A stretch of 64,000 bases of DNA from an uncultured Gammaproteobacteria bacterium (GTDB lineage Bacteria; Patescibacteriota; Microgenomatia; 2-02-FULL-39-11), in contig CAZJBV010000002.1 of assembly GCA_964544585.1 (NCBI GenBank), positions 3,468-67,467 of the forward strand, in the 5' to 3' direction. Below, one piece after another: positions 10,863-37,006 of the stretch (positions are counted from its first letter, which is position 1; each line of letters begins with the position of its first letter). The notes under the pieces are model-generated. The model did not search any database. It was given only the letters and a program-made list of their open reading frames with translations, and was not told where the DNA came from. A program made the translations under genes and the position numbers.

Positions 10863-12530
10863 ATGACCGGAAAAGGACGCTGGTTTTTCATCGCAATTAT
10901 TATTCTTGCGGCAATTTTGCGCTTTTATAAACTAGGTGATATTCCTGTCGGACTTGAATGGGATGAAGTAGCTTTAGGCTACGACGCATACTCTATCTCC
11001 CAAACAGCAAAAGACCAGTTTGGTACATTTCTTCCCCTTACTTTTCGTTCTTTAGACGATTATAAACCTCCAATTTACATTTACGCTACGGTTCCCGGTG
11101 TAGCCCTTTTTGGCCTAAACGACTTTACCACCAGATTTCCCGCAGCCTTTTTCGGGACAGCCGCAGTCATTTCTACATTTTTTTTAGCCCAAGAACTTAC
11201 AAAATCTAAAAAAATTGCCCTTATAGCTTCTCTTTTCCTAAGTTTCTCCCCCTGGCATCTCCAGTTTAGTCGGGCTGCATTCGAAGTAAACATTTCAGAC
11301 GCGATTACCATTGCCGCGGTGGCCTGCTTTCTCATCGGCCTCAAAAAACCTAAAATATTCATTCTTGCGGCAATACTTTTTGGTCTAGACCTCTTTTCTT
11401 ATCATTCCACCCGCGTCGTTGCTCCAATTATTATGCTGACTTTATTTGTATTATTTAATAAAAGACTCCCCTCCAAAAAATATATCACGATCTTTTTTAT
11501 CGTCTTTGCAGCTTTCTTTTTGGCAGTACTTCCCATCCTCCGCTCAAAAGAGGCACAAATTAGATTTATTGCCACCAACATCTTTACTCCAGGAGCACGG
11601 TATCTGGACGATAAAGATTTGGAAAAAGTTTTCCTGGAAAAAAGGCTGGAAGATACCAAAGCAGGATTCGAAACAGCCGGAAAAATATTTCATAATCAAA
11701 GACTTAAATATCTTGACTACGATACTTTAAAAAAAGCGTTCAACAACTACATCTCAAATTTCGGCTTTGATTATCTTTTTATTAAAGGCGACGTCCCCCT
11801 TCACCACGCTCCCGGATTTGGCCTCTTATACATCGCCGAGCTTCCCTTTATTCTTATTGGTTTGGGGTACATACTTTTAAAAGCCCGTAGCCCATATACA
11901 CTCTTGATTCTTATCTGGATGCTAATCGTTCCACTTCCCAGTGCAGTCACCCGGCAGGCGCCCCACGCGGTCCGCACAGAGCTATTTTTACCCACCTACC
12001 AAATTCTTTCGGCTTTAGGACTTTTTGCTATTTATTCGCTTGCTAAAAAGCAATCTCTTTGGGTCTATTTAACAAGCTTAAGTGCAATTACTACAATCCT
12101 CTCTGTAAATCAATCATTTTATCTCCACCAGTATTATGTCCACACCAATTACGAGCTCTCAAAATACTGGATATATGGGAGAAGAGAGGCGGTCGAATTT
12201 ACCGAAAAAGAAAAAAATAATTATGAAAATGTCACCGTTTCGCTCAATGCAGATATGCCCTATATTTTCTGGCTATATTATTCAAAATATCCTCCCAAAG
12301 AATATCTTAAAAAAGGTGGCACCGTATCCGGTGGTTTTGCCGACCAAAGAAATTCCTTTGACAAATATCTATTCCGAAATTTTAATTATGAGGAAGAAAA
12401 AAAACTATCAAAAAAGCAACTTCTTATCGGTACTAAAAAAGATTTTCCACCCGATATAAATCCCCTAAAAATAATAAAGTACATCAATGGAGAAGAAGCT
12501 TTATTTATAGTAAAGACGGATGGGTCATAA
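10863..12530 (+). CDS. GT-C fold membrane glycosyltransferase, family 39 (PMT/ArnT-like, PMT_2), paralog 1 of 8
   Basis: N-terminal ..L.WDEVALGYDAYSISQTAKDQFGTFLP (periplasmic-loop DE motif), about 11 TM, C-terminal soluble domain, 555 aa. Confidence 0.75.
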   Translation: MTGKGRWFFIAIIILAAILRFYKLGDIPVGLEWDEVALGYDAYSISQTAKDQFGTFLPLTFRSLDDYKPPIYIYATVPGVALFGLNDFTTRFPAAFFGTAAVISTFFLAQELTKSKKIALIASLFLSFSPWHLQFSRAAFEVNISDAITIAAVACFLIGLKKPKIFILAAILFGLDLFSYHSTRVVAPIIMLTLFVLFNKRLPSKKYITIFFIVFAAFFLAVLPILRSKEAQIRFIATNIFTPGARYLDDKDLEKVFLEKRLEDTKAGFETAGKIFHNQRLKYLDYDTLKKAFNNYISNFGFDYLFIKGDVPLHHAPGFGLLYIAELPFILIGLGYILLKARSPYTLLILIWMLIVPLPSAVTRQAPHAVRTELFLPTYQILSALGLFAIYSLAKKQSLWVYLTSLSAITTILSVNQSFYLHQYYVHTNYELSKYWIYGRREAVEFTEKEKNNYENVTVSLNADMPYIFWLYYSKYPPKEYLKKGGTVSGGFADQRNSFDKYLFRNFNYEEEKKLSKKQLLIGTKKDFPPDINPLKIIKYINGEEALFIVKTDGS

Positions 12531-14197
12531 TGGTTAAAAATATTATTTTGATCTTTATTCTTCTTCTTGCCCTCATTCTGCGAATATTTCGTGTCGATAC
12601 AAATCCTCCCGCTCTTTATTGGGACGAAGTAGCGATGGGTTACAATGCCTACTCAATTATCAAAACCGGGGCCGACGAATACGGACACAAACTACCCTTT
12701 TTCTTCGAATCATTTCAGGATTACAAACTTCCTGGATATATATATTCTCTGATTCCGGGAATCCTACTTTTTGGAGTAAGTCCATTAACGATCCGTCTTC
12801 CTTCTATTTTGTTTGGCTTCATTAGTATTATCGGAATTTATGTTCTTGGTAAAAATATTCTGGGAACAAGAGTTGGATTATTATCAGCGTTTATAGTAAG
12901 TATCATCCCCTGGCACATCCAATTGACTAGGGTAGGTTTTGAAGTCAGCGGTGGATTTGCCCTTCTCATTTTTGGCCTCCTTTTTCTCTGCCTCGGTAGA
13001 CAAAAAAAACTCCATCTTTATATTGGTGTCTTTTTGCTTATTCTCTCCCTATCTTTTTATAATGGCCTAAGAATCATCGTCCCCGTCGTTCTCATTTCCT
13101 ATTTGCTTTTTTTTAGCAGAAGTCTTCAACTATCAATAAAAGATTTACTCTGGGGGACGATCACGCTGATATTGCTAAGTCCAGTTATTTATCAATTTAT
13201 GAATCCTGATGCTCTCGTAAGATTTAGATATACCAGCATTTTTAGTGACCCGACACTTCTCGAAGAATCGATAAATAAAAAAGAATCCGTCAACAATTTT
13301 TTAGGTAAAGTATGGTACCACCGGTATAGGGTGTATGGAGAAAAAATTGCCAGGAATTATTTTGCCCACTTTTCTCCTGATTTTCTTTTATTTGATAGCG
13401 GAGAAAATGTTCGCCACAAAGTATCGGGGATTGGCCTTCTCTATCTTTGGACCGTGCCTTTTTTAATATTTGGACTTTATACTCTCATTCACCAAAGAAA
13501 TGAGTCTTTAAAACTGATTCTTCCTTTACTACTTGCCGCCCCAATTGCCTCTTCTTTTACCATTCCCTCTCCCCACGCTCTTCGTTCATTTCCACTTCTC
13601 ATTCCCCTTATTTTCATCATCGCCTTTGGAATAACGAGTCTCGTCAAGCACCTGAAAGGTGGCAGGAATGCCTACCTGCCGGCAGGCAGGGACTCCTTTC
13701 AGGTGATGGAATCTGCATTTATAATCCTCATATTGGTATTTGCTGCTACAAGTCTTTCCAGATATTTATTCGAATTTTATTTTTTCTATCCCAAACACAC
13801 TAGTAGAGATTGGGCATACGGCTATAAAGAAGTATTTGAAAAAGCAAAAAAATTTGAGGCAAGGGCAGACACCATATTTATATCTGGAAGATATTGGCGC
13901 CCATACATTTTTGCCTTATACTATCTCGACATTGACCCAAAAACATATCAAAAAAATCCCACTCATTCCCAAATTGGCAAGTTTATATTTGGACACGCCG
14001 ATTATGACGTGTCCGATCCGTTTTATGATTATAAAACTTATGATAATAATATAGTTCACAAGCTGCGCCAAAAAGGAGGAAATAACTATCTCTTCCTTTC
14101 TCCCCAAGAAACAAAAGCTGGGGATATAGTTATTGATAATATTCAGGATCTAAAAAGGGAGACGCTTTTCAACATTACCAAGAGCAGAAGTAAATAA
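12530..14197 (+). CDS. GT39/PMT-family GT-C glycosyltransferase, paralog 2, carrying an in-frame palindromic element insertion
   Basis: YWDEVAMGYNAYSIIKTGADEYGHKLPF motif. ATGA overlap with the previous gene. Element at 13649-13706 is translated as HLKGGRNAYLPAGRDSFQV. Confidence 0.75.
   Translation: MVKNIILIFILLLALILRIFRVDTNPPALYWDEVAMGYNAYSIIKTGADEYGHKLPFFFESFQDYKLPGYIYSLIPGILLFGVSPLTIRLPSILFGFISIIGIYVLGKNILGTRVGLLSAFIVSIIPWHIQLTRVGFEVSGGFALLIFGLLFLCLGRQKKLHLYIGVFLLILSLSFYNGLRIIVPVVLISYLLFFSRSLQLSIKDLLWGTITLILLSPVIYQFMNPDALVRFRYTSIFSDPTLLEESINKKESVNNFLGKVWYHRYRVYGEKIARNYFAHFSPDFLLFDSGENVRHKVSGIGLLYLWTVPFLIFGLYTLIHQRNESLKLILPLLLAAPIASSFTIPSPHALRSFPLLIPLIFIIAFGITSLVKHLKGGRNAYLPAGRDSFQVMESAFIILILVFAATSLSRYLFEFYFFYPKHTSRDWAYGYKEVFEKAKKFEARADTIFISGRYWRPYIFALYYLDIDPKTYQKNPTHSQIGKFIFGHADYDVSDPFYDYKTYDNNIVHKLRQKGGNNYLFLSPQETKAGDIVIDNIQDLKRETLFNITKSRSK
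13649..13706. repeat. GC-rich nested palindromic element (type 1): CACCTGAAAGG-[CCTaCCTGCCGGCAGGCAGG]-CCTTTCAGGTG, in-frame inside the CDS
   Basis: Outer 11-bp inverted repeat plus inner 20-bp palindrome, read directly. The GC-rich island contrasts with an AT-rich gene. Confidence 0.9.
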
Positions 14198-15108
14198 TGA
14201 AGAAATTCTTTATTTTAGTTCTTCTAAATGCTATTACAATCCATTTCTACAAACTAACTACCATATCACCTTTAAAGACTGGGTCAATCTTTTTTAGGTA
14301 TTTTTCCAGTCTTTCCTCAATATTTTCTATTTTTTTACTTTATAAAATTGTCTTTTATTACTCTAAAAATAAAAAAATAGCCTCTCTTTCTGCACTTATA
14401 TTTTCCCTACTTCCATGGACAATATGGGAAGGAAGAATAGCATCCGAAGTAAATATCTCTTTATCATTAATTCTTGCGATTTTATTTTTAGCATCAAAAA
14501 TACATGGAATAAAAAAGTTTTTTTTACTGGGGATAATACCTCTGATTATTTATTTTTTTTATCCTTCCTTTTGGCCATTTCGTCTGAGCACAAACTTAAG
14601 AGATTCTTCTCTTTCAGACTTTGTCAACAATATTTTCTTCCTTTCTTCCCTGGAAACATTATTTTTTAAAAATCCGACATTTTGGTGGGGAGGAGTTCGG
14701 CAGTGGGGGATAAGCCTTTCTGCTTTTATCCCATTTTTTTTCATCGGTTTTTTCACCACGATAGTTCAAAAAAATATTAAACTTATTTTTATTTTAATCG
14801 GAATTCTTCTACTTGCCTCTTTATCTCCTTTTCTTCCCGAAAGTAGAGAATTTTATTTTGCCACCCCAATAATAAGCTATTTCGTTTCAAAGGGTATGCT
14901 CACTGTATGTTATGCCTTAAAACACCTGAAAGGTGGCCGGAATGCCTGCCTGCCGGCAGGCAGGGACTCCTTTCAGGTGAAGGAATTTGCAATTGCTCTT
15001 TTCATTTTTTTATTTATTTATGAATACCAAAATTTTCTCCATTATTACATGGTCCATTTTCCCCAAAATGTGAAAGGACATCTCTATGATATCAAAGGAA
15101 ATTTCTAA
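14197..15108 (+). pseudogene. Decayed GT39 paralog (303 aa). Internal deletions remove the DE-motif loop, the central helices and the C-terminal domain. Retains the palindromic element at the position homologous to paralog 2.
   Basis: ..SLSALIFSLLPWTIWEGRIASEVNISL.. aligns with ..LLSAFIVSIIPWHIQLTRVGFEVSGG.. of 12530. The tail ..ALKHLKGGRNACLPAGRDSFQVKEFAIALFIF matches ..LVKHLKGGRNAYLPAGRDSFQVMESAFIILIL. No DE motif. Ends where the next paralog begins. Confidence 0.5.
14923..14979. repeat. GC-rich nested palindromic element (type 1), in-frame inside the truncated paralog
   Basis: CACCTGAAAGGTGGCCGGAATGCCTGCCTGCCGGCAGGCAGGGACTCCTTTCAGGTG read directly. Confidence 0.9.
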
Positions 15109-16732
15109 AAGAGAAATAATTTTATTAATTTTTATTCTTATTTTTTCTGCCATCGTCAGACTATACCGAATTGACACTATACCTCCATCTCTATATTCTG
15201 ACGAGGCAAGTCAAGGTTACAATGCCTATTCCATCCTAAAGACCGGCAAAGACGAACACGGAAATTTTCTCCCAGTTTCCCTTCGCTCATTTGGAGATTG
15301 GAAACCACCCCTGCCTACTTATCTCATGATTCCTGGTATTGCTCTATTTGGCCTAAACGAATTTTCAGTCCGAATACCCTCTGTTGTACTCGGAATTGGC
15401 AGCGTTTATATTGCCTATCTTCTCATCAAAGAATTAATTAAAGAAAAGGGCTCAGAAAAAATTGCCCTTTTGGGAGCATGGGCAATGAGCATCTCTCCCT
15501 GGCATATCCTCCAAAGTCGCGCAAGTATGCTGGTTATCGTCTCACTTTTTTTTGTCGAAGCAGGTATATTATTTTTTCTAAAAGTAAGCCAAAATCCCAA
15601 AAATCTAATTTTCTCATCCATAATGTTTGCCCTTTCTATTTATGCTTATTATGGCACAAGAATTGTTACGCCTCTTATTATTATTGTTTTTCTTTTTTAC
15701 TCGCGAAAATGGATTTTAGAAAATAAAAGAGTTTCACTAGCCGCATTCTTTATTGGAGTAATTATTTTATTTCCACTTTTAGTCTCTTTTATCGGAAATC
15801 AAAACGTTATTTTTGGCCGGGCCAAAACAGTCAGTGTTTTTTATGATCAAGGCGTAAAATTAAAACAATGGGAGCTGATTACTCAAGACGGAACACAACA
15901 AAATCCAAAAGTTACTCTTTATTTTCATAATGATACTTATCTATACGCCAAAGATATACTAGAGCGATATTTATCCCATTTTGACCCTAGATATCTCTTT
16001 TTTAAAGGAGATGGAGCCTATCCTTTCAAGATCCCCAATATGGGAATTTTATATTTCGTTGAAGGAATATTAATAATTATAGGAATTACATATTTATTTA
16101 ATAGAAAATTAGAGACAAGGTTTATAATTATATTTTTAATACTCATCTCAATCATTCCCGCTTCACTAACCTTTGCTACTCCGTCATCTAACAGAACATT
16201 TCATTTGCTATTCCCAGCTTCTATACTCATTGCTTTAGGTTTGTATAGAATTTCAACCTCGAAAATTATTGCTGCACTCAGCGTTCTAATATACATTACT
16301 AGCATCAACTATTTTTTTGTCCAGTATTTCCTCGTTCTCCCCAAAGATTATACTTTCGTGTGGAATTTCGGCTGGAAAGAGGTTTTTGCTGCCACCAGAA
16401 AATATGAAAAAGACTCTCAATATATATTAGTCTCTGACGTCAATGGCATGCCCTATATATATTATCTCTTTTACAACCAGTACGATCCTTTAAAGTTTCA
16501 AAAAAAAGTCGTCCGCACAAATATTGCAGATCGCTTCGGTTTTGAACACATTAACAGTATCGATAAATATATTTTCCTTCCCGAGTTCGACTGGAATAGC
16601 ATAAAAGATAGCCCCCTACCAAATAGCATATACATAGCTTCCCAAAAAGAAATAGAGAATAATGCGGGTATCACCGAAATAGTATATTATCCAAATGGAA
16701 AAGAGGTCTGGAAAATAGTCAAATCACCATGA
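15086..16732 (+). CDS. GT39/PMT-family GT-C glycosyltransferase, paralog 3
   Basis: SLYSDEASQGYNAYSILKTGKDEHGNFLPV motif, 548 aa, multi-TM plus C-terminal domain. Confidence 0.75.
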   Translation: MISKEISKREIILLIFILIFSAIVRLYRIDTIPPSLYSDEASQGYNAYSILKTGKDEHGNFLPVSLRSFGDWKPPLPTYLMIPGIALFGLNEFSVRIPSVVLGIGSVYIAYLLIKELIKEKGSEKIALLGAWAMSISPWHILQSRASMLVIVSLFFVEAGILFFLKVSQNPKNLIFSSIMFALSIYAYYGTRIVTPLIIIVFLFYSRKWILENKRVSLAAFFIGVIILFPLLVSFIGNQNVIFGRAKTVSVFYDQGVKLKQWELITQDGTQQNPKVTLYFHNDTYLYAKDILERYLSHFDPRYLFFKGDGAYPFKIPNMGILYFVEGILIIIGITYLFNRKLETRFIIIFLILISIIPASLTFATPSSNRTFHLLFPASILIALGLYRISTSKIIAALSVLIYITSINYFFVQYFLVLPKDYTFVWNFGWKEVFAATRKYEKDSQYILVSDVNGMPYIYYLFYNQYDPLKFQKKVVRTNIADRFGFEHINSIDKYIFLPEFDWNSIKDSPLPNSIYIASQKEIENNAGITEIVYYPNGKEVWKIVKSP

Positions 16733-18525
16733 AGAGTGCCTGGATTAGATATATCATCATAACTATAATTCTTGCCGGCATATTAATCCGCTTTTTAAAT
16801 CTGCTCGAAGGCACCGGATTTAAATGGGATCAGGAAAATTTGGTTGCCTATCCTGCCAAAAATATTATTGCTACCCATCATCTACCCTTAATTGGAGCCA
16901 GAACCTCAATAGGCGATATACATATTGGCCCTCTCTATTCCTATCTTGCTGCTTTTTATTTTTATATTTTTAAACTCGATCCCATTGCCGCTGCATATCT
17001 TTCTACCTCGATAGGCGTAATCTCTGCTCTCACAGGATACATCCTCATCAAAATTTTGTTCGACGACGACACTGCCCTCTTTTTTACTCTTATTTTTGCA
17101 GTGTCCCCATTAATCGTCTTTTTTGATCGCATCCCTTGGAATGTAAATCTACTTTTACCTTCGTCGATATTAGTTCTTGTTGGATTACTATTCATCGGAT
17201 TAAAAAATAGATTATTTATAGGATTTACCCTCCTGGGCTTAGGAATTTTTTTGGGACTTCAGAGCCACTTTAGCATCATAATTATAGGAATAAGTGCACT
17301 ACTTTATCTCCTTTTAAAAAGAAAATTGTATAAAAAACCTTTTTTCCTCACCATTATGTTTATAGCCCTTGGACTCTTGCCTCTTATTATTTTTGACCTC
17401 AGACATGATGCCTATCTTCTTAAAAATATTCTTAAGTTGATGGATAAGAAAGATATATATGCCGGTCATAACCTGCTTAAAAATTTTTTTAGCACAATCT
17501 CTATATCATTTGAAACAGTAGGCAGGTTATTTATTTATGATGGTCCTTCATTCTTACAAAAAACTTTTGCTATTGGATTATTACTAATTTTTATTTTTGT
17601 TAAAAAGACAAAAGAAATGTCGGAAGTTGTCAAAATTATACTTATTTATCTTCTTGGCTTTTTCGGCATACTTGGATTATATAGCGGGCCAAAACCTGAT
17701 TATTATTTTTTTGGCTTATTGCCGCCATTTATATTACTGCTCTCACTCGGCGCCAAAGCTTTGAGCCAGAAAAATACGCCAATAACTTTATTATTAATAA
17801 CTTTTGCCGTCTCCTTATTGGTGCAATCATTTAACAATACAACGAAAAAACCCGGAGACAATCTTTCTGCCATGCAAAAAATTGTCAAAACGATAAAAAA
17901 GACCGCAAAAGAAAAGAAGGTATCAATCGTTTATGAAATGGATTATGGTAATCAATTTGGCTATGACTATCTTTTTGACTTCTATGGAGTAAAACGTCAA
18001 GAAAGAAAAGATGGGATCAATGAATATTGGATAAGTTTCCCTAAAAGTAGATCTCCATTTACTCCAGATTATACATTCGGGCAAATCGGCCTTCTTACCC
18101 CACTCCACACTCCCAAAATATATAATACAAAGAAGTTAACTTTATACAATGGGTTATTTTCCCTTAGAGTTCCTAAAAAGTGGTCTGTCCTGCAATGTCC
18201 TTATATAGACTTCGACACCTATATCATAACTCCAAACGAAGAATCATCATGTTCCTCCGCAAAAGTTGAAAAAGAAGGAATACACATTCTCAATATTCCT
18301 CACTGTAATATTAAGCTTGCTAAAAATAGAAAAAGTCTAAAAGTAAAATCGAAAGTAACTTTCTATCTCATCTCAGTCAACGAAAGGAATAGTGATGTCC
18401 CCATAAATGAAGCAGTCGTTGCCTCATTTGAAATAGATAGATGTATCATATTTATAGATCGTGCGGCAAAAGAAGTGCTTCCTCTAACAAATGATCTGGA
18501 AGATTTATTAAAATCATTAAAATGA
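16729..18525 (+). CDS. Polytopic membrane protein with about 200-aa soluble C-terminal domain (possible GT-C-like). Not a member of the flanking GT39 paralog family.
   Basis: 598 aa. N-terminal two-thirds hydrophobic. Lacks the YxDExxxGYNAYS motif. 4-nt overlaps with both neighbours. Confidence 0.35.
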   Translation: MKSAWIRYIIITIILAGILIRFLNLLEGTGFKWDQENLVAYPAKNIIATHHLPLIGARTSIGDIHIGPLYSYLAAFYFYIFKLDPIAAAYLSTSIGVISALTGYILIKILFDDDTALFFTLIFAVSPLIVFFDRIPWNVNLLLPSSILVLVGLLFIGLKNRLFIGFTLLGLGIFLGLQSHFSIIIIGISALLYLLLKRKLYKKPFFLTIMFIALGLLPLIIFDLRHDAYLLKNILKLMDKKDIYAGHNLLKNFFSTISISFETVGRLFIYDGPSFLQKTFAIGLLLIFIFVKKTKEMSEVVKIILIYLLGFFGILGLYSGPKPDYYFFGLLPPFILLLSLGAKALSQKNTPITLLLITFAVSLLVQSFNNTTKKPGDNLSAMQKIVKTIKKTAKEKKVSIVYEMDYGNQFGYDYLFDFYGVKRQERKDGINEYWISFPKSRSPFTPDYTFGQIGLLTPLHTPKIYNTKKLTLYNGLFSLRVPKKWSVLQCPYIDFDTYIITPNEESSCSSAKVEKEGIHILNIPHCNIKLAKNRKSLKVKSKVTFYLISVNERNSDVPINEAVVASFEIDRCIIFIDRAAKEVLPLTNDLEDLLKSLK

Positions 18526-20165
18526 AAAAAAGATTTGCCTTTATTATCCTCATCTTTATTTATGCTTTAACAGTTCGCTTTTTCAAAATCGACGACATTC
18601 CCTCAGGCTTTTATAGCGATGAGGCCCTTTTTGGCTACGAAGCTTATTCCATATTAAAAACGGGAAAAGATCAGTTTGGAAATATATTACCAGTTTCATT
18701 TAAGGGATTTGGAGACTTTCGCCCAGGGTTATTTATCTACACTACAATTCCTTTTATTTTTTTGTTTGGCCTGACTGAATTTGCTACCCGCCTTCCTAGC
18801 GTCATATTTAGTACTCTTACAATCCTGATAATTATTGCCCTCTCTAAAGAATTATTTGGAAGATGGAAAATAGCTCTTTTAGGAGGATTTATATTTGCCA
18901 TTTCTCCCTGGAGCATCCAGTTTGCCAGAATGTCACACGAAACAAATCTATCCACGGCGATTGCACTGTCTGGGATTTTATTTTTAGTCAAAAGTATAAA
19001 AAATAAAATTTATCTACCAATTTCTTTCATCCTTTTTTCCTTAGCAGCTTATGCATATTACACCACCAGACTTTTCGTTCCCATTTTTCTTCTGGCATCC
19101 CTAATAATTTACAGAAAAGAATTTTTCTCCAAAAAGAAAATCCTTATTTTGGGAGCCGGTCTTGCCCTAATCCTTCTTATTCCTCTTGGATTAAACCTTT
19201 TGGACAAAGAAAGGGGTTGGTCTCGCGTTTCCGGAGTAAGTCTCTGGGGTGACAAAGGTATTAAAGCCAAGCTTATTAACTTTCGACAGGAGGATGCACT
19301 CACCAATACCCTTTTTTCCAGAGTTTTTCATAATAAGCTAGTCGACAATACACACGCATTGCTAGACAGCTTCCTGATCCATTTTGAACCAAAATTTTTA
19401 TTAACGACCGGCGACCCCAATAAACTATACAATACGCCTGGCAATGGTCTTCTCCTATATATCGAACCTATTCTTATTCTTGTTGCTATTGTTTATGTAG
19501 TAAGTACCAAAAATAGTTATAATAAATTATTCCTCGTTTGGCTCTGTCTAGGATTATTACCAGATGCTCTGACACGATTTGCACCTGCTTCTCCACGTAT
19601 TCACCTTGTGCTACCTCTGGTGAGTATTATGGGAGGCTTAGGATTGGCAATTATAGGAGATTATCTGAAAATATTTAAAAGAAGACATATTTGGCTTACA
19701 GGTATAACAATCTTGATTTTATCTAATTTTGCTTACTTTCTCCATTCAAATATTTTTCATGTCCCTATACGATACGCCAAAGAGTGGCAATACGGCATAA
19801 GAGAATTAGTAACGAAAATGAATAAATACCAAAACACACACGACCGAATCTGGATTTCAACTAGAGCAGGATTATGGATTTATTATGTATTTTATCTTAA
19901 ATATCCTCCACAAAATTTACAAAAAGAAATAGTCCTCACACCAAAAGATGAGTTTGGATTCGGAAGAGTAAATGATTTTGGAAAATATCACTTCGAGATA
20001 ATTCCAGGAGCATTCGATTACACAAAAAACATTCTCTACATAGGTGAACCAGATGAATTTAATTCAAAAATAGTGCCCGACGAAATAGTATATTATCCAA
20101 ACAGGGAACCAGCTTATTATATCGTCTCTACAACTAGTATAAAGAAAACACTAGAGATTAAATGA
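18522..20165 (+). CDS. GT39/PMT-family GT-C glycosyltransferase, paralog 4
   Basis: GFYSDEALFGYEAYSILKTGKDQFGNILPV motif, 547 aa. Confidence 0.75.
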   Translation: MKKRFAFIILIFIYALTVRFFKIDDIPSGFYSDEALFGYEAYSILKTGKDQFGNILPVSFKGFGDFRPGLFIYTTIPFIFLFGLTEFATRLPSVIFSTLTILIIIALSKELFGRWKIALLGGFIFAISPWSIQFARMSHETNLSTAIALSGILFLVKSIKNKIYLPISFILFSLAAYAYYTTRLFVPIFLLASLIIYRKEFFSKKKILILGAGLALILLIPLGLNLLDKERGWSRVSGVSLWGDKGIKAKLINFRQEDALTNTLFSRVFHNKLVDNTHALLDSFLIHFEPKFLLTTGDPNKLYNTPGNGLLLYIEPILILVAIVYVVSTKNSYNKLFLVWLCLGLLPDALTRFAPASPRIHLVLPLVSIMGGLGLAIIGDYLKIFKRRHIWLTGITILILSNFAYFLHSNIFHVPIRYAKEWQYGIRELVTKMNKYQNTHDRIWISTRAGLWIYYVFYLKYPPQNLQKEIVLTPKDEFGFGRVNDFGKYHFEIIPGAFDYTKNILYIGEPDEFNSKIVPDEIVYYPNREPAYYIVSTTSIKKTLEIK

Positions 20166-21778
20166 ATAAAAAAATATTTCTTATCCTCATACTTATCCTA
20201 GCGTTTTTTCTCCGGACATTTAGTATTTCAAATTTCCCCAAAACACTTTACGGCGACGAACAGGCTTTTGCCTGGAATGCCTATAGCATCCTCAAAACAG
20301 GCCAAGATGAATATGGCTCTCCCTATCCCTTGCAGTTTCGCTCCTTTGACGACTACAAAGCTCCAATTCCCGTCTATCTTCTCGTCCCATTTGTTCATAT
20401 GTTCGGCTTAAATGCCTATGCAATCCGCTTACCTATATCACTCGCCGGAACCCTTACAATTTTAGTAGCATACTTCCTCTTCAAAATATTCTTTAATAAA
20501 AAAATTGCCCTTCTTGGGACTTTCTTTTTTGCCATATCTCCCTGGCACGTCCATCTTTCCAGAGGTTTTTTTGAATCCACTCTGAGCCTACTTTTCTTTA
20601 CGGCAGGTATTTGGCTTTTCCTAAAAAAACCCATGAGTTTAGGATTTATAATTTTAGGAAGTATTTTATTTATCGCCACTCTCTACAGTTATTTCACTCC
20701 CAGAATCTACCTCCCAATTTTTTTCTTGGGCTTATCAGCCTACTTATTGTATTTCCACAAAACAGAAAGAATTAAAATTGCCAAGAATTTAATTTTTGGA
20801 ATAATTATAATTTTTATTTTATCTCTGCCTCTAATCAAGGCTTCACTCTTTGATAAAGGACTATCAAGAATTGGAAAGCTCGTCGCTACCAACGAGTCTC
20901 AAATTATAGAAACCATAAATCGAGAGCGCAATGCCTCAAATCTTCCCCTCTGGGCAAGGGTAACACTCCACAATAAAGCTACAGGTTGGGTACGTTTTAT
21001 TAGTACAAATTATTTAGAACTTCTCTCTACCAACTATCTTTTTATTACAGGCGACACATCCCTCAGATATTTCCTCGGCAATATGGGCATGCTGTATCTT
21101 GCCGAATTACCCCTATTTCTAATAGGAGTATATTTTATGTTCAGACAAAAAGCCTCCGCTGCCATCTTTTTCTTTATCTGGCTTATAATCATGCCCATTC
21201 CCGCAGCCATTGCCGGCAAACCATTTGGAATAAGAAGTTTAAGTATACTTCCTGCTCCCTTTATCTTTGTGGCTTTAGGGATATATGCCCTGAAAAGAAA
21301 AACCCTTTTTAATATTTTATTATCTATAGTTTTTATAGTCAGTCTTGGAAATTATCTTGTCCGATATTATTTTGAATACCCTGTATATGCCGCCACTTGG
21401 TGGGGATGGGAGAATAAAGCCGCCCTGGATTACGCCAAAGCTAGGCAGTCCAATTATGATAAAATTTTTCTCTCTGATTTCTATACTGGTATGCCCCTTG
21501 CCTTTGCAGTCTACGAAAAAATGGACCCAAATATATATAGGCAGGCGCTCCAAAATAAAATAATTCTCGCCGACGACAGAGGATTCATCAAATTTGGTAA
21601 ATATTACATCGGCTCTCTGGATCTGGATAAAAAACGCCTTTCCCAAAACCTTATCCCAGAAAAAAGTCTTTATATCGGCCGTCCCGAAGAAGCAGAAGCG
21701 GGCATCACTATCAATGCACCAGATGAAGCCGGCAGAATCATATTCAGGATTTATGAAACTTTAAAAAAAAGTGAATGA
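20162..21778 (+). CDS. GT39/PMT-family GT-C glycosyltransferase, paralog 5
   Basis: LYGDEQAFAWNAYSILKTGQDEYGSPYPL motif, 538 aa. Confidence 0.75.
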   Translation: MNKKIFLILILILAFFLRTFSISNFPKTLYGDEQAFAWNAYSILKTGQDEYGSPYPLQFRSFDDYKAPIPVYLLVPFVHMFGLNAYAIRLPISLAGTLTILVAYFLFKIFFNKKIALLGTFFFAISPWHVHLSRGFFESTLSLLFFTAGIWLFLKKPMSLGFIILGSILFIATLYSYFTPRIYLPIFFLGLSAYLLYFHKTERIKIAKNLIFGIIIIFILSLPLIKASLFDKGLSRIGKLVATNESQIIETINRERNASNLPLWARVTLHNKATGWVRFISTNYLELLSTNYLFITGDTSLRYFLGNMGMLYLAELPLFLIGVYFMFRQKASAAIFFFIWLIIMPIPAAIAGKPFGIRSLSILPAPFIFVALGIYALKRKTLFNILLSIVFIVSLGNYLVRYYFEYPVYAATWWGWENKAALDYAKARQSNYDKIFLSDFYTGMPLAFAVYEKMDPNIYRQALQNKIILADDRGFIKFGKYYIGSLDLDKKRLSQNLIPEKSLYIGRPEEAEAGITINAPDEAGRIIFRIYETLKKSE

Positions 21779-23421
21779 TTAAAATAAATAACATTTTAAT
21801 ACTATTACTGTTGGTTTTAGCAAGTCTTTTACGACTTTTTTTTCTGACAGAATATCCTTCAGGTTTCCACATAGATGAGGTAACTCTTGGTTACAACTCG
21901 TATCTTTTATTGCATACGCTCAAAGATGAAACCGGTAAGGTACTGCCTCTTTATTCTCAATCCTTCGGTCTTGATAGAGCTTTAGGAAATTTTCTTCTTG
22001 TGGCAGGGAGCGAAAAATTATTTGGCCTAACCGAACTAGCTATTCGCCTTCCTTTTGCCATATTTGGAATAGGCTCTGTCTTTCTTATGTATCTTCTCTC
22101 CCTAAAATTTCTCAGAAAAAGGCTCTATGCCTTAATTGTAGTTTTTGTGATAACCATCTCTCCTTGGCACATAAGTATAGTCCGGGCAAGTTCTGAAGCA
22201 AGTGTTTCTCTCTTTCTGATCCTATTGAGTCACTATCTCTTTTTCAACTTTCTCGAGGAAAAAAGGATAAAATTTCTTCTAACTTCTTTATTTAGTCTTA
22301 TCCTCTCTATCTTTTTCTACCATGCGGCATTTGGATACGTCCTTATTCTTCTTCCGGCTATCGGAATATTTATCCTATTTACATTGCCTCAAGAAAAAAT
22401 GAAATTGTTTTCACTCCTGGGTGTTATTGGGATAACAGTATTACTTCTAATCTATTTTTTCCTAAGTCGCGGAGGAGCAACAAGGTTAGATCAAGTAGGA
22501 TTTCACAAAGATACAAAAGTTATAATGGAGCAACAGAAAATGTTTTTCGAAGAAGGATCAAATTCCGTTTCTCAAGCAAGATTCTATCATAATAAAGTCG
22601 TCACATATATAAGAGCCATGTTGAATAACTATTCTGAATATTTTTCTCTTTCCTATCTATTTACACAGGGAGGACTACCGCCGCGCTATACAGCACCAGC
22701 CATGGGTTTACTCTATCTATTTGAAATACCCCTCCTTCTCTATGGCCTCTATAAATTATTTTCTAAAGACGTTCACTATGGAAGCTTTCTTGCGCTTTTA
22801 TTGATAACTAGTCCCTTTGTCGCCGCAACTACTTACGAATATTCCCCCAACGTTCAAAGATCTTTCTTCATGCTTCCTTACCTTATTCTTATAGTCGGCA
22901 TAGGTTTATATTACTCAATTAAAAAAGCCCAAAATAATAAAATATTTATTATCCTCATCGTTTTTTTCGTTTTTCTAAATACCCATTACTTCATGCATCA
23001 ATACTTTAAACATTTTCCAGTTCATAATCCACTCTACAGAAACGACGGCGCAAAAGAACTTGTCTCCTATGTTACTCAAAAAGTATCAAAGTATAATAGA
23101 ATTTTTATAACTAACTCTCCTGAATCTCCCTACTACTATTTCTTCTTTTATAATAAGTTGGATCCACAAAAATTTCATAATCTCTATAGTCAAATAAGAA
23201 ATAGTCCCGTCGGCTGGCTGTATGAAAAAAAGATTTTCTTCACCACATTTGAATGTCCATCCTTTTCAAAGGAACTACCTCAATTAAAAAATGCTCTTTA
23301 CATAGACAGCGGGGAATGCAAATACACTACAGATATAGAAACAGATTTTCATATAGAAAAAGAAATTTTAAGGAAGGATAATTCAGTAGCTTATCGATTG
23401 CTTATAAGAAAAGAAGAATGA
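21775..23421 (+). CDS. GT39/PMT-family GT-C glycosyltransferase, paralog 6 (most divergent)
   Basis: GFHIDEVTLGYNSYLLLHTLKDETGKVLPL motif, 548 aa. Confidence 0.7.
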   Translation: MIKINNILILLLLVLASLLRLFFLTEYPSGFHIDEVTLGYNSYLLLHTLKDETGKVLPLYSQSFGLDRALGNFLLVAGSEKLFGLTELAIRLPFAIFGIGSVFLMYLLSLKFLRKRLYALIVVFVITISPWHISIVRASSEASVSLFLILLSHYLFFNFLEEKRIKFLLTSLFSLILSIFFYHAAFGYVLILLPAIGIFILFTLPQEKMKLFSLLGVIGITVLLLIYFFLSRGGATRLDQVGFHKDTKVIMEQQKMFFEEGSNSVSQARFYHNKVVTYIRAMLNNYSEYFSLSYLFTQGGLPPRYTAPAMGLLYLFEIPLLLYGLYKLFSKDVHYGSFLALLLITSPFVAATTYEYSPNVQRSFFMLPYLILIVGIGLYYSIKKAQNNKIFIILIVFFVFLNTHYFMHQYFKHFPVHNPLYRNDGAKELVSYVTQKVSKYNRIFITNSPESPYYYFFFYNKLDPQKFHNLYSQIRNSPVGWLYEKKIFFTTFECPSFSKELPQLKNALYIDSGECKYTTDIETDFHIEKEILRKDNSVAYRLLIRKEE

Positions 23422-25034
23422 AGAAAGTCATATTTTTTTTATTGATTGTTGTTTTATCTCTCGCTTTGCGATTGTATAATCTATCCACCAATCCTCCATC
23501 TCTCTACTGGGACGAAGCTTCCCTGGGTTACAACGCCTACTCCATTCTTACTTCCGGCAAAGACGAACACGGAGAATTCTTCCCCCTGGCCCGCTTTATT
23601 GCTTTCGGCGATTTCAAACCACCCGGATATATTTATGCCGCGGCTTCTTCAATTGCCCTCTTTGGTTTAAATGAATTTGCCATCCGCTTTCCCTCATTTC
23701 TTTCCGGAACTCTATTGGTTCTTGGCGCATATCTTCTCACATCAAAGCTCCTGGGAAACACAAAAATTGCCCTCATTGCCGCATTTATAATGTCGATCTC
23801 ACCCTGGGGAATCCATTTTTCCCGCGCCGCCTTCGAAGCAAATATGGCTGCTACTCTAAACCTCTTTGCCATTTATTTTTTTATTTGCCAAAAAAAAAGA
23901 AGTTGGTATCTGGTTCTTTCTTTAATTTTCTTTATTCTTGCATTTTATACATTCAACGCCAACAGAATAATTTCTCCACTTCTAATAATAATTCTCTCTT
24001 TCTTATTTTGGCGTGATACTTTCAAAAATTGGCGCTGGGCAATTGCCGGAATTATTATTTCGGTATTTTTGCTATTACCTAGTGCCAAATATCTTTTAGA
24101 TAGAGAGAGTAGAATTCGTTTTCAGGAAGTCTCTATCTTCAACAACCTTGAAACTGTCAAAACGTCAAATGAAAGAATAGAAAGAGAAGGAGGGAACGTT
24201 ATCGCCAGGGTTCTTTACAACAGAAGAGTTTTATTTAGCCTTGATTTTTTAAAACATCTCACAGACAATTTTAACCTTCGCTTTCTTTTTACCCAGGCAG
24301 ACGCAAATCCCAGACTTTCTATAGAGGGGTTGGGTCTTCTTTATTTTTATGAATTACCATTTCTTATTATCGGAATAATATATCTATTAAAAACCAATCG
24401 TAAAGCCGCACTTTTAATTTTCACATGGATGATAATAGCGGCAGTTCCAGCTGGAACTGCTAGAGAAACACCACATGCGCTGCGCACCATTTCCATTCTT
24501 CCCACCTATCAAATCCTTATAGCTTCTGGCGTTTTGGCTCTATATTATTGGGTTAAAAATCTATCTGGCAAAAAAATACTGCCCATTAGTATAACTACCC
24601 TGACTATAGTAATCGCCTTTCATCTATATTATTTTCTTCACATGTATCTTATCCATTATCCCGTAAACTGGCCCGCTCAGTGGCAATATGGATATAAAGA
24701 GATGGTTCGATTTGTCCTCCAAAATAGGCAAAACTACGATAAAATTTATGTAACAGAAGCGCTTGGCCGTCCCTATATTTATTTTGCTTTATTTACGCCA
24801 TATAGCCAAGACGATTTCCAATTCAGACGCGATGCCTCTCGCGACTGGTTTGGTTTTTGGACAGTTCATTCACTAGATAATATCTATTTTAGTATCCCCC
24901 AAAGTCAGGAGTTAAAAGGCAAAGTCCTTTTAGTTGAGGGCAGAGACGCAATACTTCCACCAGACTTTATAATTATAAAAGAAATAAAAGAGCCAAACGG
25001 GAACGTAGTCTTTAAGATCGCCCAAAAAATATGA
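23418..25034 (+). CDS. GT39/PMT-family GT-C glycosyltransferase, paralog 7
   Basis: SLYWDEASLGYNAYSILTSGKDEHGEFFPL motif, 538 aa. Confidence 0.75.
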   Translation: MKKVIFFLLIVVLSLALRLYNLSTNPPSLYWDEASLGYNAYSILTSGKDEHGEFFPLARFIAFGDFKPPGYIYAAASSIALFGLNEFAIRFPSFLSGTLLVLGAYLLTSKLLGNTKIALIAAFIMSISPWGIHFSRAAFEANMAATLNLFAIYFFICQKKRSWYLVLSLIFFILAFYTFNANRIISPLLIIILSFLFWRDTFKNWRWAIAGIIISVFLLLPSAKYLLDRESRIRFQEVSIFNNLETVKTSNERIEREGGNVIARVLYNRRVLFSLDFLKHLTDNFNLRFLFTQADANPRLSIEGLGLLYFYELPFLIIGIIYLLKTNRKAALLIFTWMIIAAVPAGTARETPHALRTISILPTYQILIASGVLALYYWVKNLSGKKILPISITTLTIVIAFHLYYFLHMYLIHYPVNWPAQWQYGYKEMVRFVLQNRQNYDKIYVTEALGRPYIYFALFTPYSQDDFQFRRDASRDWFGFWTVHSLDNIYFSIPQSQELKGKVLLVEGRDAILPPDFIIIKEIKEPNGNVVFKIAQKI

Positions 25035-26635
25035 AAAAAATAATTATCCTTTCTATTTTTCTTCTTGCTTTTATCCTTCGTTTTTTCCATCTCGGACAAA
25101 ACCCTCCTTCCCTTGATTGGGACGAAGCTTCTCTCGGTTACAACGCATTTAGCCTCCTCAAAACTGGCAGAGATGAATATGGAGAGTTTCTCCCGCTTTC
25201 AATTCGTTCCTTTGGAGACTACAAACCTCCGCTTTATACCTATTTATCAATACCATTTGTAGCAATTTTCGGCCTCAACGAATTTTCAGTCCGATTTATT
25301 TCTGCATTATTCGGTACATTAACTACACTTGTTGTTTACCTTCTTGTCAAAAAAATATTTCCCGGAAAATCCTATATCTTTTATCTCTTATCTTTTATCT
25401 TTTTCGCCCTCTCGCCTTGGCATATCCAATTCTCCCGCATCGCCTTCGAAGCCAATCTCGCCCTCTTTTGGTTTATATTTGGAATTTATCTTCTCTTCAA
25501 AGGATTAGAAAAGGGACCATTTTTATTCATTGCATCATTTTCATTTGCTCTTTCCATGTATTCCTATCACAGTCCCAGGCTTCTTGTGCCTTTTCTTTTA
25601 GTTGGTTTTTCTCTCATCTTTAGAAAGTCGATAAAACAAAATTTAGCCTGGGCGGCAGTAGGCGCCATAACGATTATTTTATTAATCCTGCCAATTATTT
25701 ATCAGTTGACCTCAACCTCCGCAAGGCTAGGATCAGTCACTCTCTTTAATCCTTATGAAAGACTGGGGTCATCAATAAGAGATTTAGAGTACGATATGAA
25801 AAGAAATGATAACTTTGGCAAAATTCTCCATAACCGTCGCCTAATTTATGCCAAAGAGGCTTTCGCAGGATATTTAGATCACTTCAATTTTGACTTTTTG
25901 TTTTTGATAGGTGATCCACCCGGTAGACACCACGCGGCCGGCATGGGCATGCTCTATTTATGGGATTTCCCCTTTATTATTTTAGGTCTTGTCTATTTTC
26001 TCAAACATAGGGATAAGAGCGTTTCTTTCTTATTTTTATGGTTTCTCATTTCCCCCTTGGCATCTGCTATCACCACTGGTACTCCCCATGCAGTCCGAGC
26101 CATCTTTTATCTCCCTACATACCAGATTTTTTCCGCAGCTGGTGTAATTTTCTTTCTTACGTGGATCAAAAATCTTAACAAAAATATTAGATATTTTATA
26201 TTTATCTTTTATCTTTTATCTTTTATCTTTAATTTCTATTATTATCTCCGCATGTATTATATTCATACTCCAGTAGAGTACTCCTCGTGGTGGCAATACG
26301 GCTATAAACAAGTAGTTGAAGAAGTTTCAAAAAGGCAAAATCAATACGACAAAATCATCGTTACCTATAAATATGATCAACCCTATATATTCTTTCTTTT
26401 TTATCAAAAGTTCGATCCATCGGTATATCAAAAAAAATGGAGCGAAAGCAAAATAGAGCGAAGCGTTCGCTCATATGGAAAATATGAATTTCGCAACATT
26501 GAATGGTCAAAAGATAGCCAAAGCCCCAATACTCTCATCGTCGGAACCCCAGACGAAATACCAGAAGATATTAGTACCCTAAAAGAAATTAAATTTCTCG
26601 ACGGCACTCCCGCATTTAAGATAGTTGGGACCTAA
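25031..26635 (+). CDS. GT39/PMT-family GT-C glycosyltransferase, paralog 8; contains two (TTTTATC)n tracts
   Basis: SLDWDEASLGYNAFSLLKTGRDEYGEFLPL motif, 534 aa. Confidence 0.75.
   Translation: MKKIIILSIFLLAFILRFFHLGQNPPSLDWDEASLGYNAFSLLKTGRDEYGEFLPLSIRSFGDYKPPLYTYLSIPFVAIFGLNEFSVRFISALFGTLTTLVVYLLVKKIFPGKSYIFYLLSFIFFALSPWHIQFSRIAFEANLALFWFIFGIYLLFKGLEKGPFLFIASFSFALSMYSYHSPRLLVPFLLVGFSLIFRKSIKQNLAWAAVGAITIILLILPIIYQLTSTSARLGSVTLFNPYERLGSSIRDLEYDMKRNDNFGKILHNRRLIYAKEAFAGYLDHFNFDFLFLIGDPPGRHHAAGMGMLYLWDFPFIILGLVYFLKHRDKSVSFLFLWFLISPLASAITTGTPHAVRAIFYLPTYQIFSAAGVIFFLTWIKNLNKNIRYFIFIFYLLSFIFNFYYYLRMYYIHTPVEYSSWWQYGYKQVVEEVSKRQNQYDKIIVTYKYDQPYIFFLFYQKFDPSVYQKKWSESKIERSVRSYGKYEFRNIEWSKDSQSPNTLIVGTPDEIPEDISTLKEIKFLDGTPAFKIVGT
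25374..25410 (+). repeat. (TTTTATC)n-like heptanucleotide tract (imperfect) inside the CDS, encoding ..IFYLLSFIFF..
   Basis: tatcttttatctcttatcttttatcttttt read directly. Confidence 0.7.
26209..26232 (+). repeat. (TTTTATC)n heptanucleotide tract inside the CDS, encoding ..FIFYLLSFIFNF..
   Basis: tttatcttttatcttttatcttttatcttt read directly. Confidence 0.8.
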
Positions 26636-26668
26636 AATTCATTCATGATACAATTATCTAGCCTAAAC

Positions 26669-33237: not shown

Positions 33238-33276
33238 TTCTATAAACAAACTGATTAAGACAAAATTGACTTAAAA

Positions 33277-36320: not shown

Positions 36321-37001
36321 ATGAAATTATTAATAGCCATCCCGGCCTACAACGAAGAATCAACTATCAGAAAAGTAATTAAATCTATTCCTCCAAAAAT
36401 AAAAGACATAAAAAAGATAGAGACTATTATCATAGATGACGGCTCTGAAGATAACACGGGAAAAGTAGCAGAAAAATATGGGGCAATAGTCTTAAGACAC
36501 CTAATCAATAGGGGATTGGGAGGAGCCATCGCCACTGCCTTAGAGTATGCAAAGATCAATAATTATGACTTACTCATTACCCTGGACGCTGATGGACAAC
36601 ATGAACCCAAAGATATTCCTATATTTATAAACTCAATTAGAGTCAACAAAAATGATGTAGTTATCGGCTCGCGATGGTTGAATGGTAGCGATGCACCCCT
36701 GTCGAGAATCTTTATAAATAAAATAGCCAATTTCCTTACTTTTTTTCTTTGCGGCGTATTTTCTACCGATTCGCAGTCTGGTTATCGCGCATTTAGTAAA
36801 AATGCAATTCAGAAAGTCAATCTCCACACCAGCGGTATGGAAGTATCAAGCGAAATATTTAGTGAAATTTATAAAAATAAGTTAAAATATGGTGAAGTAC
36901 CGATAAAGGCAATTTACACTAAATATTCAAAAGCCAAAGGACAACGTTTGTCTGATGCTCCGGATGTTTTAATTCGTTTAATAATAAGAATTTTAAGTTA
37001 G
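36321..37001 (+). CDS. GT2 polyprenyl-phosphate sugar synthase (Dpm1/GtrB-like), second copy
   Basis: LLIAIPAYNEESTIRKVI.......IIIDDGSEDNTGKVAEKYGA.V.RH..N.GLGGA......A......LLITLDADGQHEP. Confidence 0.7.
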   Translation: MKLLIAIPAYNEESTIRKVIKSIPPKIKDIKKIETIIIDDGSEDNTGKVAEKYGAIVLRHLINRGLGGAIATALEYAKINNYDLLITLDADGQHEPKDIPIFINSIRVNKNDVVIGSRWLNGSDAPLSRIFINKIANFLTFFLCGVFSTDSQSGYRAFSKNAIQKVNLHTSGMEVSSEIFSEIYKNKLKYGEVPIKAIYTKYSKAKGQRLSDAPDVLIRLIIRILS

Positions 37002-37006
37002 ATACT

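Follow-up and report, generated by a model that had tools for sequence, protein, structure and literature searches.

A ten-gene array of GT-C glycosyltransferase-like paralogs in a surface-glycan locus of an uncultured Microgenomates bacterium

Why would a bacterium carry, end to end on one strand, ten related genes for large membrane proteins, and what might each of them do? We addressed this question for a 64,000-nucleotide stretch of contig CAZJBV010000002.1 (64 kb; hereafter the window) from a groundwater member of "Candidatus Gottesmanbacteria" with a tiny genome, in which ten abutting or overlapping open reading frames (ORFs) fill positions 10863 to 26635 of the plus strand with no intergenic gap. 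Members of this radiation, whose genomes are very small, are believed to live on other cells or to need them, which makes surface chemistry central to their way of life; to our knowledge, very little is known about it. We propose, with a probability of roughly 0.6, that the ten genes (eight full-length paralogs, A to H, a distant paralog, y, and a short one, x) form a co-directional, overlap-coupled block derived from one GT-C glycosyltransferase ancestor. Their products would transfer sugars from polyprenyl-phosphate carriers outside the cytoplasm, with paralog-specific acceptors or linkages and a surface glycopolymer as the most likely acceptor. The argument starts from homology and orthology, the fold, residue conservation, the topology prediction, and synteny; from these we infer the donor type, catalysis on the outside, separate specificities, and what kind of acceptor is used.

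The array consists of the following genes. Scores refer to the Pfam models PMT_2 (PF13231) and PMT (PF02366), which have gathering thresholds of 26.1 and 22.7 bits, respectively.

10863..12530, plus strand: paralog A, 555 amino acids (aa), a DE-bearing GT-C protein; PMT_2 35.6 bits and PMT 31.6 bits, both above threshold
12530..14197, plus strand: paralog B, 555 aa; PMT_2 43.2 bits; in-frame GC-rich palindromic insert at ~13650-13705
14197..15108, plus strand: short paralog x, 303 aa; without DE loop, long outer loop, or C-terminal domain
15086..16732, plus strand: paralog C, 548 aa; PMT_2 45.0 bits, PMT 37.2 bits
16729..18525, plus strand: distant paralog y, 598 aa; PMT_2 38.5 bits
18522..20165, plus strand: paralog D, 547 aa; PMT_2 45.8 bits
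20162..21778, plus strand: paralog E, 538 aa; PMT_2 32.2 bits
21775..23421, plus strand: paralog F, 548 aa; PMT_2 19.4 bits; the most divergent of A to H
23418..25034, plus strand: paralog G, 538 aa; PMT_2 44.8 bits, PMT 40.5 bits; the penultimate, core gene
25031..26635, plus strand: paralog H, 534 aa; the terminal array gene, whose protein was modeled with AlphaFold

The eight full-length ORFs all lie on one strand and encode 534 to 555 aa, and the starts given for them in the initial annotation of this DNA (10863, 12530, 15086, 18522, 20162, 21775, 23418, and 25031) were exact. Neighboring genes had been described as joined by ATGA or 4-nucleotide overlaps. Six junctions are indeed 4-nucleotide ATGA overlaps, but two are 1-nucleotide TAATG overlaps, and 14197 and 15086 overlap by 23 nucleotides. 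These overlapping stop and start codons are compatible with co-translation, and a single operon had been proposed from them; promoter-like sites were at chance level (68 versus 59.2 ± 9.0 in shuffled sequence), as were terminator-like sites (16 versus 16.3), counts that speak neither for nor against one transcript. A search with Rfam found no RNA families in the 64-kb window.

Pairwise comparison of A to H gave 26 to 38% identity for all pairs across 440 to 560 aligned residues, i.e., approximately the full length. The alignment has 24 invariant columns, among them (in H numbering) R17, P25, D31-E32, D48, G51, P55, R88, P129, W130, R136, R232, P352, and R356. The Asp-Glu pair D31-E32, which follows the first membrane helix, is kept in 249 to 250 of 250 aligned family members, and R356 is kept in 255 of 255. 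Paralog F, though below the PMT_2 threshold, retains all invariant residues. The longer loop motif previously drawn around the Asp-Glu pair is accurate for the pair itself but otherwise approximate, as the ORF at 20162 has FAWNAYS and that at 21775 has GYNSYLL. We ruled out the array being a recent duplication or an assembly artifact, since the identities between paralogs are too low and orthologs occur in other genomes. The array is real rather than an effect of chance or assembly because the copies are too diverged in DNA for an assembler to have collapsed or duplicated them.

We then asked how the array compares with its counterparts in related genomes, taking one genome per species. The scan found 580 relatives, of which the best 79 loci were used; its search patterns came from a 72-sequence alignment and are biased towards the H orthogroup. 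The best 79 belong to Gottesman-, Levy-, Woese-, Curtiss-, and Chisholmbacteria, all Microgenomates. Every one of the 46 loci longer than 20 kb holds at least two strong family members within ~21.6 kb: two members in 12 loci, three in 11, four in 11, five in 4, six in 7, and seven in 1, all of which are lower bounds given the 10-kb flank. Tandem arrays of two to seven or more members are normal in Microgenomates, and the array in the window therefore marks the upper end of a lineage-wide pattern and is not singular. The earlier description of the set as far larger than a Pmt family has to be withdrawn, as budding yeast already has seven PMT genes and arrays are the rule in Microgenomates.

Paralogs A and C to H each fall into a cluster of their own with exactly one member per locus; B is the exception. 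Between 3 and 28 clear orthologs were found for each of the seven paralogs other than B. Those of A occur once per locus in seven other loci (42 to 61% identity); C has 10 (39 to 50%), D has 5 (37 to 49%), E has 9 (31 to 55%), and F has 3 (e.g., 45% in locus L006). The G cluster has a single member in each of 59 loci (38% identity level). The orthologs of H, whose named sources are "Candidatus Gottesmanbacteria," are 50 to 68% identical to it, far exceeding the 26 to 38% between paralogs. For B, no clear ortholog was found in any related locus examined. In all related loci examined, the H ortholog is the final gene of the array, and the gene order A-C-(x)-?-D-E-G-H recurs in at least six of them (L013, L008, L011, L014, L010, and L061). 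G and H constitute a widely kept core, and A, C, D, E, and F are limited to a narrower Gottesmanbacteria clade. Judging from these comparisons, the array is old. The family as a whole comprises 7,006 clusters at 50% identity (exhaustive profile search, E ≤ 1e-30).

Many of these loci (L010, L014, L015, L019, L021, L022, and others) carry the record title "uncultured Gammaproteobacteria bacterium." They hold orthologs that are 40 to 59% identical in the same gene order, and their content fits Microgenomates; the titles look like placeholder or wrong taxonomy.

The two remaining array genes also belong to the family. The 598-aa ORF at 16729, previously called unrelated, exceeds the PMT_2 cut-off (38.5 versus 26.1 bits) and aligns to the paralog profile over 326 columns with an hhalign probability of 97.9%. 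It is therefore a ninth and more distant GT-C paralog, with WDQE instead of WDE and a separate C-terminal region of ~230 aa. The 303-aa ORF at 14197 had been taken for a decayed copy. It has no PMT_2 match in Pfam; it aligns to the paralog profile with an hhalign probability of 97.6% and is collinear with residues 99 to 154 and 309 to 404 of paralog B. Thirteen homologs of 283 to 305 aa cover 92 to 100% of its length at 32 to 43% identity, and this short family has 23 invariant positions of its own (e.g., in NPTFWWGGVR and SPFFPESREFY). A pseudogene is ruled out by these similarly sized homologs with shared invariant motifs. A gene of this type lies immediately upstream of the C ortholog in L002, L013, L015, L010, and L061, and one such counterpart is also 303 aa long. 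The short paralog x is thus probably a conserved, noncatalytic relative and possibly a partner of paralog C.

To which glycosyltransferase family do these proteins belong? The Pfam search proposed in the initial annotation showed that seven of the eight full-length paralogs pass the PMT_2 threshold (32.2 to 50.2 bits), with F below it at 19.4 bits, and that five of the eight pass the PMT threshold (31.6 to 41.4 bits). B, D, and E gave no match to PMT, and F reached 17.6 bits. The PMT_2 score exceeds the PMT score in every paralog, and 8 of the 10 array ORFs have a match to one or the other above threshold. The models built for specific functions were missed by a wide margin: the best score against the bacterial Pmt equivalog NF058602 was 16.9 bits over 57 residues (cut-off, 800), and against the ArnT equivalog NF009784 it was 16.8 bits (cut-off, 567). 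Pfam STT3 matched no protein in the window. No array protein has a Pfam match to the MIR domain, which eukaryotic PMTs carry in their large luminal loop, and the long outer loop, of ~83 aa, is helical. Bacterial Pmt likewise lacks MIR, and its absence thus does not exclude a Pmt of the bacterial type. Existing database labels for these proteins are "glycosyltransferase family 39 protein," "phospholipid carrier-dependent glycosyltransferase," and "ArnT-like."

Structure prediction points to the same broad class. The AlphaFold model of H (72 sequences; predicted local distance difference test [pLDDT], 92.7; predicted template modeling score, 0.92) has structural matches exclusively among GT-C enzymes, with AglB, ALG12, STT3B, ArnT, and Pmt4 about equally close. 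In the model, a many-helix membrane core and an outer-loop domain after helix 1 are superposable on solved GT-C enzymes. A profile of the eight paralogs had ArnT as its sole significant match in the PDB (E = 0.0015 over 158 positions, the alignment opening at a common KPP motif), and H alone as a single-sequence query matched no solved structure. We regard the assignment to the GT-C fold as secure. The proteins had initially been assigned to the GT39/PMT family; the GT-C fold and the PMT_2/PMT sequence clan are borne out, but with the bacterial Pmt model at 16.9 versus 800 bits, membership in GT39 or another established family is not established by sequence comparison.

A crude hydropathy scan gave inconsistent counts of 5 to 11 helices and was replaced by the AlphaFold helices combined with a count of Lys and Arg residues. 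The model has 11 membrane helices, of which the first precedes the DE loop and the other ten follow it; about 11 had been expected after the loop, which is correct as a total only. Summed over the eight paralogs, the density of Lys plus Arg in short loops is 0.327 on the predicted inner side and 0.109 on the outer side. This asymmetry argues against a cytoplasmic DE loop, which would have contradicted the initial annotation, and supports a predicted topology with the N terminus inside; on the outside would be the C-terminal domain and two loops, the DE loop and the long one that follows helix 7. The further invariant residues D48, K65, R88, P129-W130, R136, R232, and R356 are also predicted to face outward in the model. 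The C-terminal domain measures 120 to 134 aa rather than the 150 aa given before; modeled alone, it takes a small alpha/beta fold (pLDDT, 86) that has weak structural neighbors only.

Directly after the last membrane helix lies a W-Q-Y-G motif (H residues 421 to 424, window positions 26291 to 26302, with equivalent sites in the other paralogs). Among 255 family members, W occurs in 209, Q in 161, Y in 186, and G in 212. In position and spelling it may be reminiscent of the WWDYG motif of oligosaccharyltransferases.

If the paralogs act on different acceptors, divergence might be expected in particular regions. Mean identities by region were as follows.

DE loop: 48% among the 8 paralogs, 76% among 65 H-orthogroup members
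Helices 2-7: 31% among the 8 paralogs, 49% among 65 H-orthogroup members
Long outer loop: 25% among the 8 paralogs, 62% among 65 H-orthogroup members
Helices 8-11: 28% among the 8 paralogs, 47% among 65 H-orthogroup members
C-terminal domain: 26% among the 8 paralogs, 57% among 65 H-orthogroup members

Regions other than the C-terminal domain have therefore diverged as well, and the claim that divergence is concentrated there is at most weakly true (26%, versus 25% in the outer loop, 28% in helices 8 to 11, and 31% in helices 2 to 7). The membrane helices overall are ~48% identical inside the H orthogroup and ~30% identical between paralogs. The sharpest contrast between conservation within and divergence between orthogroups is found in the two large outer regions (outer loop and C-terminal domain), as paralog-specific acceptor recognition would predict.

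The array is embedded in a nearly unbroken plus-strand block of surface-glycan genes. The window also encodes nucleotide-sugar enzymes, cytoplasmic GT2 and GT4 enzymes, a carbamoyltransferase, and a Wzm/Wzt exporter with a Wzt_C domain. The genes that bear on donor supply or that are themselves of GT-C type are listed below.

901-2364: Wzx-like protein (Polysacc_synt_3, 167 bits), the only flippase candidate in the window
8590..10848, plus strand: YfhO-family GT-C protein, 752 aa (Pfam YfhO, 108.8 bits), ending 14 nucleotides before paralog A
26769-27695, plus strand: sugar epimerase of the short-chain dehydrogenase/reductase type (Pfam Epimerase)
27692-29161, plus strand: flavin adenine dinucleotide oxidoreductase (Pfam Amino_oxidase; NCBIfam NF005548, "hypothetical protein," 477.7 bits versus a cut-off of 389)
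29158-29907, plus strand: GT2 enzyme with one C-terminal membrane helix (Pfam Glycos_transf_2; AglJ/PpgS-like below threshold)
29904-31547: PTPS_related GT-C-type protein
35163-36311: PIG-V-like GT-C-type protein
36321..37363, plus strand: GT2 enzyme, 226 aa, and, at 37007, a DUF2304 membrane protein, 118 aa; candidate polyprenyl-phosphate sugar synthase and activating partner
41642-43078: near-threshold PMT_2 protein (25.8 versus 26.1 bits)
44250-45710: GT-C-type protein (hhalign probability of 94% to the paralog profile)

With the ten array genes and at least five outside, the 64 kb contains at least 15 GT-C-type genes. The large membrane proteins at 31477 and 55667 and a partial ORF at 11-880 gave no match.

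Lipid-linked sugar synthases had been expected near the array, at 29158 and 36321, and both remain plausible. The protein at 36321 matches Glycos_transf_2 (97 bits) and aligns with the PpgS model from end to end, at a score (143 bits) below the cut-off of 370; its neighbor at 37007 matches DUF2304 (81 bits), and the pair also occurs in L002 and L006. A GacI/GacJ- or PpgS/Rv3632-type pair is a plausible candidate identity for the two. The epimerase, oxidoreductase, and GT2 genes at 26769 to 29907 recur as a trio downstream of the H ortholog in L002 (11639-14733) and L006 (11636-14751); in L004 the oxidoreductase and GT2 genes are present there and the epimerase is absent. This trio is a candidate route to the synthesis or modification of the donor. 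The oxidase/reductase pair beside a lipid-sugar synthase may, by analogy, recall the DprE1/DprE2-type epimerization of a lipid-linked sugar.

Taken together, these features suggest a mechanism. Each full-length protein would cross the membrane 11 times, with its N terminus inside, the invariant Asp-Glu pair in the first outer loop, and an alpha/beta domain of ~120 aa outside after the last helix. Two GT2 synthases, the one at 36321 aided by its DUF2304 protein and the one at 29158, would load a single sugar onto polyprenyl-phosphate in the cytoplasm, and the loaded carrier would be flipped across the membrane. A GT-C paralog could then hand over the sugar to an acceptor at the external membrane surface, in the manner of three-component systems of the Gtr, GacIJKL, or Pgf type. 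Since the outer loop and C-terminal domain are kept within orthogroups and differ between them, each paralog probably has an acceptor site or linkage of its own. The acceptor may be the cell-surface glycopolymer that the surrounding 64-kb locus, with its GT2 and GT4 enzymes, Wzm/Wzt exporter, and Wzx-like flippase, is predicted to build. Protein O-glycosylation and surface polymers had both been suggested as acceptors. Proteins are possible, but the gene context favors polysaccharide no less strongly; the polymer of this locus is thus the most likely acceptor, ahead of a set of proteins, and protein O-glycosylation is the main alternative.

Several points weigh against this proposal. None of the array proteins reaches a curated functional model in NCBIfam, the best being the Agl23 family at 43 bits (cut-off, 126). 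As promoter- and terminator-like sites are not in excess, the case for a single operon is the one made by the overlaps. We noticed no ORF for a GtrA-type flippase in the 64-kb window, and two candidate lipid-sugar synthases are visible for at least ten GT-C genes. Finally, the streptococcal GT-C enzymes PgtC2 and PgfM1 glycosylate Ser/Thr-rich regions of proteins by the same three-component logic (PMC12041528).

This last precedent leads to the main alternative, which we find rather doubtful: the paralogs could be PMT-like protein O-glycosyltransferases that use polyprenyl-phosphate sugars to modify Ser/Thr residues of different secreted or surface proteins (pilins, S-layer, or envelope proteins) as these emerge from the membrane. 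That five of the eight pass the PMT threshold, that the invariant Asp-Glu pair in the first outer loop and the 11-helix topology with the N terminus in and the C terminus out match those of PMTs, and that some bacteria O-glycosylate proteins by means of a GT-C enzyme together with a GT2 synthase and an epimerase (PgfS/PgfE/PgfM1 and GtrB/PgtC2; PMC12041528) all fit this idea. However, the bacterial Pmt model is missed widely (16.9 versus 800 bits), PMT_2 outscores PMT in all paralogs, and the fold is equally near to non-PMT GT-C enzymes. The context, moreover, is of the polysaccharide type (Wzm/Wzt, Wzx, many cytoplasmic GT2 and GT4 enzymes, and the GacI/GacJ-like pair), and no candidate acceptor protein was found in the window.

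We consider it improbable that the paralogs, rather than transferring single sugars from monophosphate carriers, resemble oligosaccharyltransferases, acting on a preassembled glycan with a diphosphate carrier, or that they are noncatalytic, Agl23-like helpers in the flipping of lipid-linked glycans. The family-wide W-Q-Y-G sits after the last membrane helix, where the oligosaccharyltransferase WWDYG is located; the top NCBIfam match is the Agl23 family; and two homologs have a precomputed Pfam STT3 match. None of the paralogs in the window matches STT3, though, and the Agl23 score is far under its cut-off. The paralogs have a degenerate version of WWDYG, with Gln, Ile, Ala, or Asn in place of its Asp, there are 11 helices rather than the 13 of oligosaccharyltransferases, and the near-universal Asp-Glu pair and arginines speak for catalysis. 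Very improbable, in our judgment, is a set of redundant or diversity-generating copies with no fixed distinct jobs (serving, e.g., surface variation against phages or hosts), even though array size differs by genome (21.6 kb hold as few as 2 and as many as 7 or more members), paralog B lacks an ortholog in the related loci examined, and the slot between C and D is filled by the divergent y here but by a regular family member in relatives. At 26 to 38% identity no paralog is a recent duplicate, seven of the eight have one-per-genome orthologs in related Gottesmanbacteria at the higher identity of 40 to 68% and in conserved order, every invariant residue is kept in all eight, and no frameshifted or truncated recent copies were seen.

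The preferred reading, extracytoplasmic transfer to a surface glycopolymer, can tentatively be taken further. It is possible that the fixed-order array, A-(B)-x-C-y-D-E-F-G-H, would work as an extracytoplasmic assembly line in which each GT-C enzyme adds the next sugar from a lipid-phosphate donor to one complex surface glycan, with the conserved, noncatalytic short paralog x paired with C, in a bacterium whose genome of ~1 Mb devotes >60 continuous kb to surface glycans. Such a series would be comparable to the ALG3/9/12/6/8/10 series in the lumen of the endoplasmic reticulum and to the mycobacterial arabinan enzymes. If this were true, no other bacteria would be known to have as many glycosyltransferases dedicated to work outside the cytoplasm as Microgenomates, and the family, whose clusters at 50% identity number at least 7,000, would be a major uncharacterized enzyme group shaping the surface of host-dependent bacteria.

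A GC-rich palindromic repeat with the core CTGCCTGCCGGCAGGCAGG is a separate feature of the window, where it occurs in five copies (13650-13705, 14924-14980, 26668-26725, 33275-33335, and 45800-45840) against a chance expectation of 0.02. Paralog B (12530) and x (14197) each contain one copy in frame, in the same inner loop preceding the last helix, and these two copies encode HLKGGRNA(Y/C)LPAGRDSFQV; the insert is absent from the homologs of x. The three other copies are intergenic, and their flanks differ. All copies form strong predicted hairpins (-32 to -47 kcal/mol; z, about -3 to -3.7), and the core was found in none of 86 related loci. The repeat resembles the palindromic elements that occur in frame in Rickettsia. 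Two other ORFs deserve mention. The 586-aa membrane ORF at 31477-33237, with no Pfam match, has a TTG start that gives a 71-nucleotide overlap with the previous gene, and a slightly downstream in-frame ATG (MHKKIFLW...) is the likelier start. At the edge of the glycan block, among small unrelated genes, 4501-4968 encodes a 155-aa protein with Arg/Gly-rich ends and a central CxxC...CxxC motif resembling a zinc ribbon.

How does the array compare with known systems? The closest parallels in logic are the three-component systems, i.e., GtrA/GtrB/Gtr(type) of Shigella and Salmonella, GacI/GacJ/GacK/GacL of Streptococcus pyogenes, and CsbB/GtcA/YfhO, which acts on lipoteichoic acid; all of these, like the locus studied here, have a small GT2 polyprenyl-phosphate sugar synthase. 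The synthases GacI and PpgS are bound and stimulated by the DUF2304 proteins GacJ and Rv3632, respectively, and the GT-C enzyme GacL then transfers the sugar to the wall polysaccharide (10.1101/180810). Here too, a DUF2304 partner is encoded beside the synthase, the flippase candidate is Wzx-like, as is GacK, and a GT-C enzyme is predicted to complete transfer on the outside, with Wzm/Wzt export in the same locus. In contrast, the known systems have one or a few GT-C enzymes per donor and this locus has 8 to 10 related genes plus the YfhO, PTPS_related, and PIG-V-like proteins and those at 41642 and 44250; in addition, a GtrA-type flippase is not seen in the window.

Among single enzymes, the GT136 protein of Citrobacter youngae (ORF12; Kelly et al. 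2024) has 11 helices, with the catalytic D31 following helix 1 and a domain that binds the acceptor at the C terminus (PMC11127046). By its published architecture it resembles the array proteins in its 11 helices, the small helical domain after helix 1 with Asp 31, and the extra outside domain after helix 11, and ArnT is the nearest solved relative by sequence in both cases. It differs in that its C-terminal domain is a beta-rich carbohydrate-binding module, whereas that of the array proteins is a small alpha/beta domain without a clear match, and in being a single gene. The GT39 PMTs (yeast Pmt1-7 and mycobacterial Pmt) share the Asp-Glu pair in the first outer loop, the 11 helices with the N terminus in and the C terminus out, and the PMT matches found in five of eight paralogs. 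They are also a multigene family whose members differ in acceptor, as we infer here; the array proteins, however, lack MIR, fail the bacterial Pmt model (16.9 versus 800 bits), carry an extra C-terminal domain, and are encoded in one tandem block. ArnT (GT83) has 13 helices and acts on lipid A, and its model fails here (16.8 versus 567 bits); the locus shows no evident lipid A pathway, and bacteria of this group probably have no outer membrane. The Emb proteins, GT-C arabinosyltransferase paralogs encoded in tandem in the mycobacterial embCAB operon, are ~1,090 aa long with large carbohydrate-binding domains and are encoded by three genes rather than ten, with no detectable sequence relationship to the array beyond the common fold.

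A literature search for glycosyltransferase arrays in Patescibacteria or Gottesmanbacteria returned no paper on the size or conserved order of such arrays. The enzyme class and general mechanism are known, and we expect the GT-C chemistry here to be conventional. New are the distinct Microgenomates subfamily, the conserved order of multiple paralogs, the short partner without the Asp-Glu pair, and the scale relative to the genome. Microgenomates are thus predicted to keep large, ordered sets of outside-acting, lipid-sugar-dependent glycosyltransferases from a family without a studied member, and the defined orthogroups, conserved catalytic signature, candidate donor synthases, and candidate noncatalytic partner offer material for experiments. 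Compared with the systems above, the value of the array for specialists in cell-surface glycans and uncultured bacteria lies in its scale, organization, and unexplored biology rather than in a new mechanism.

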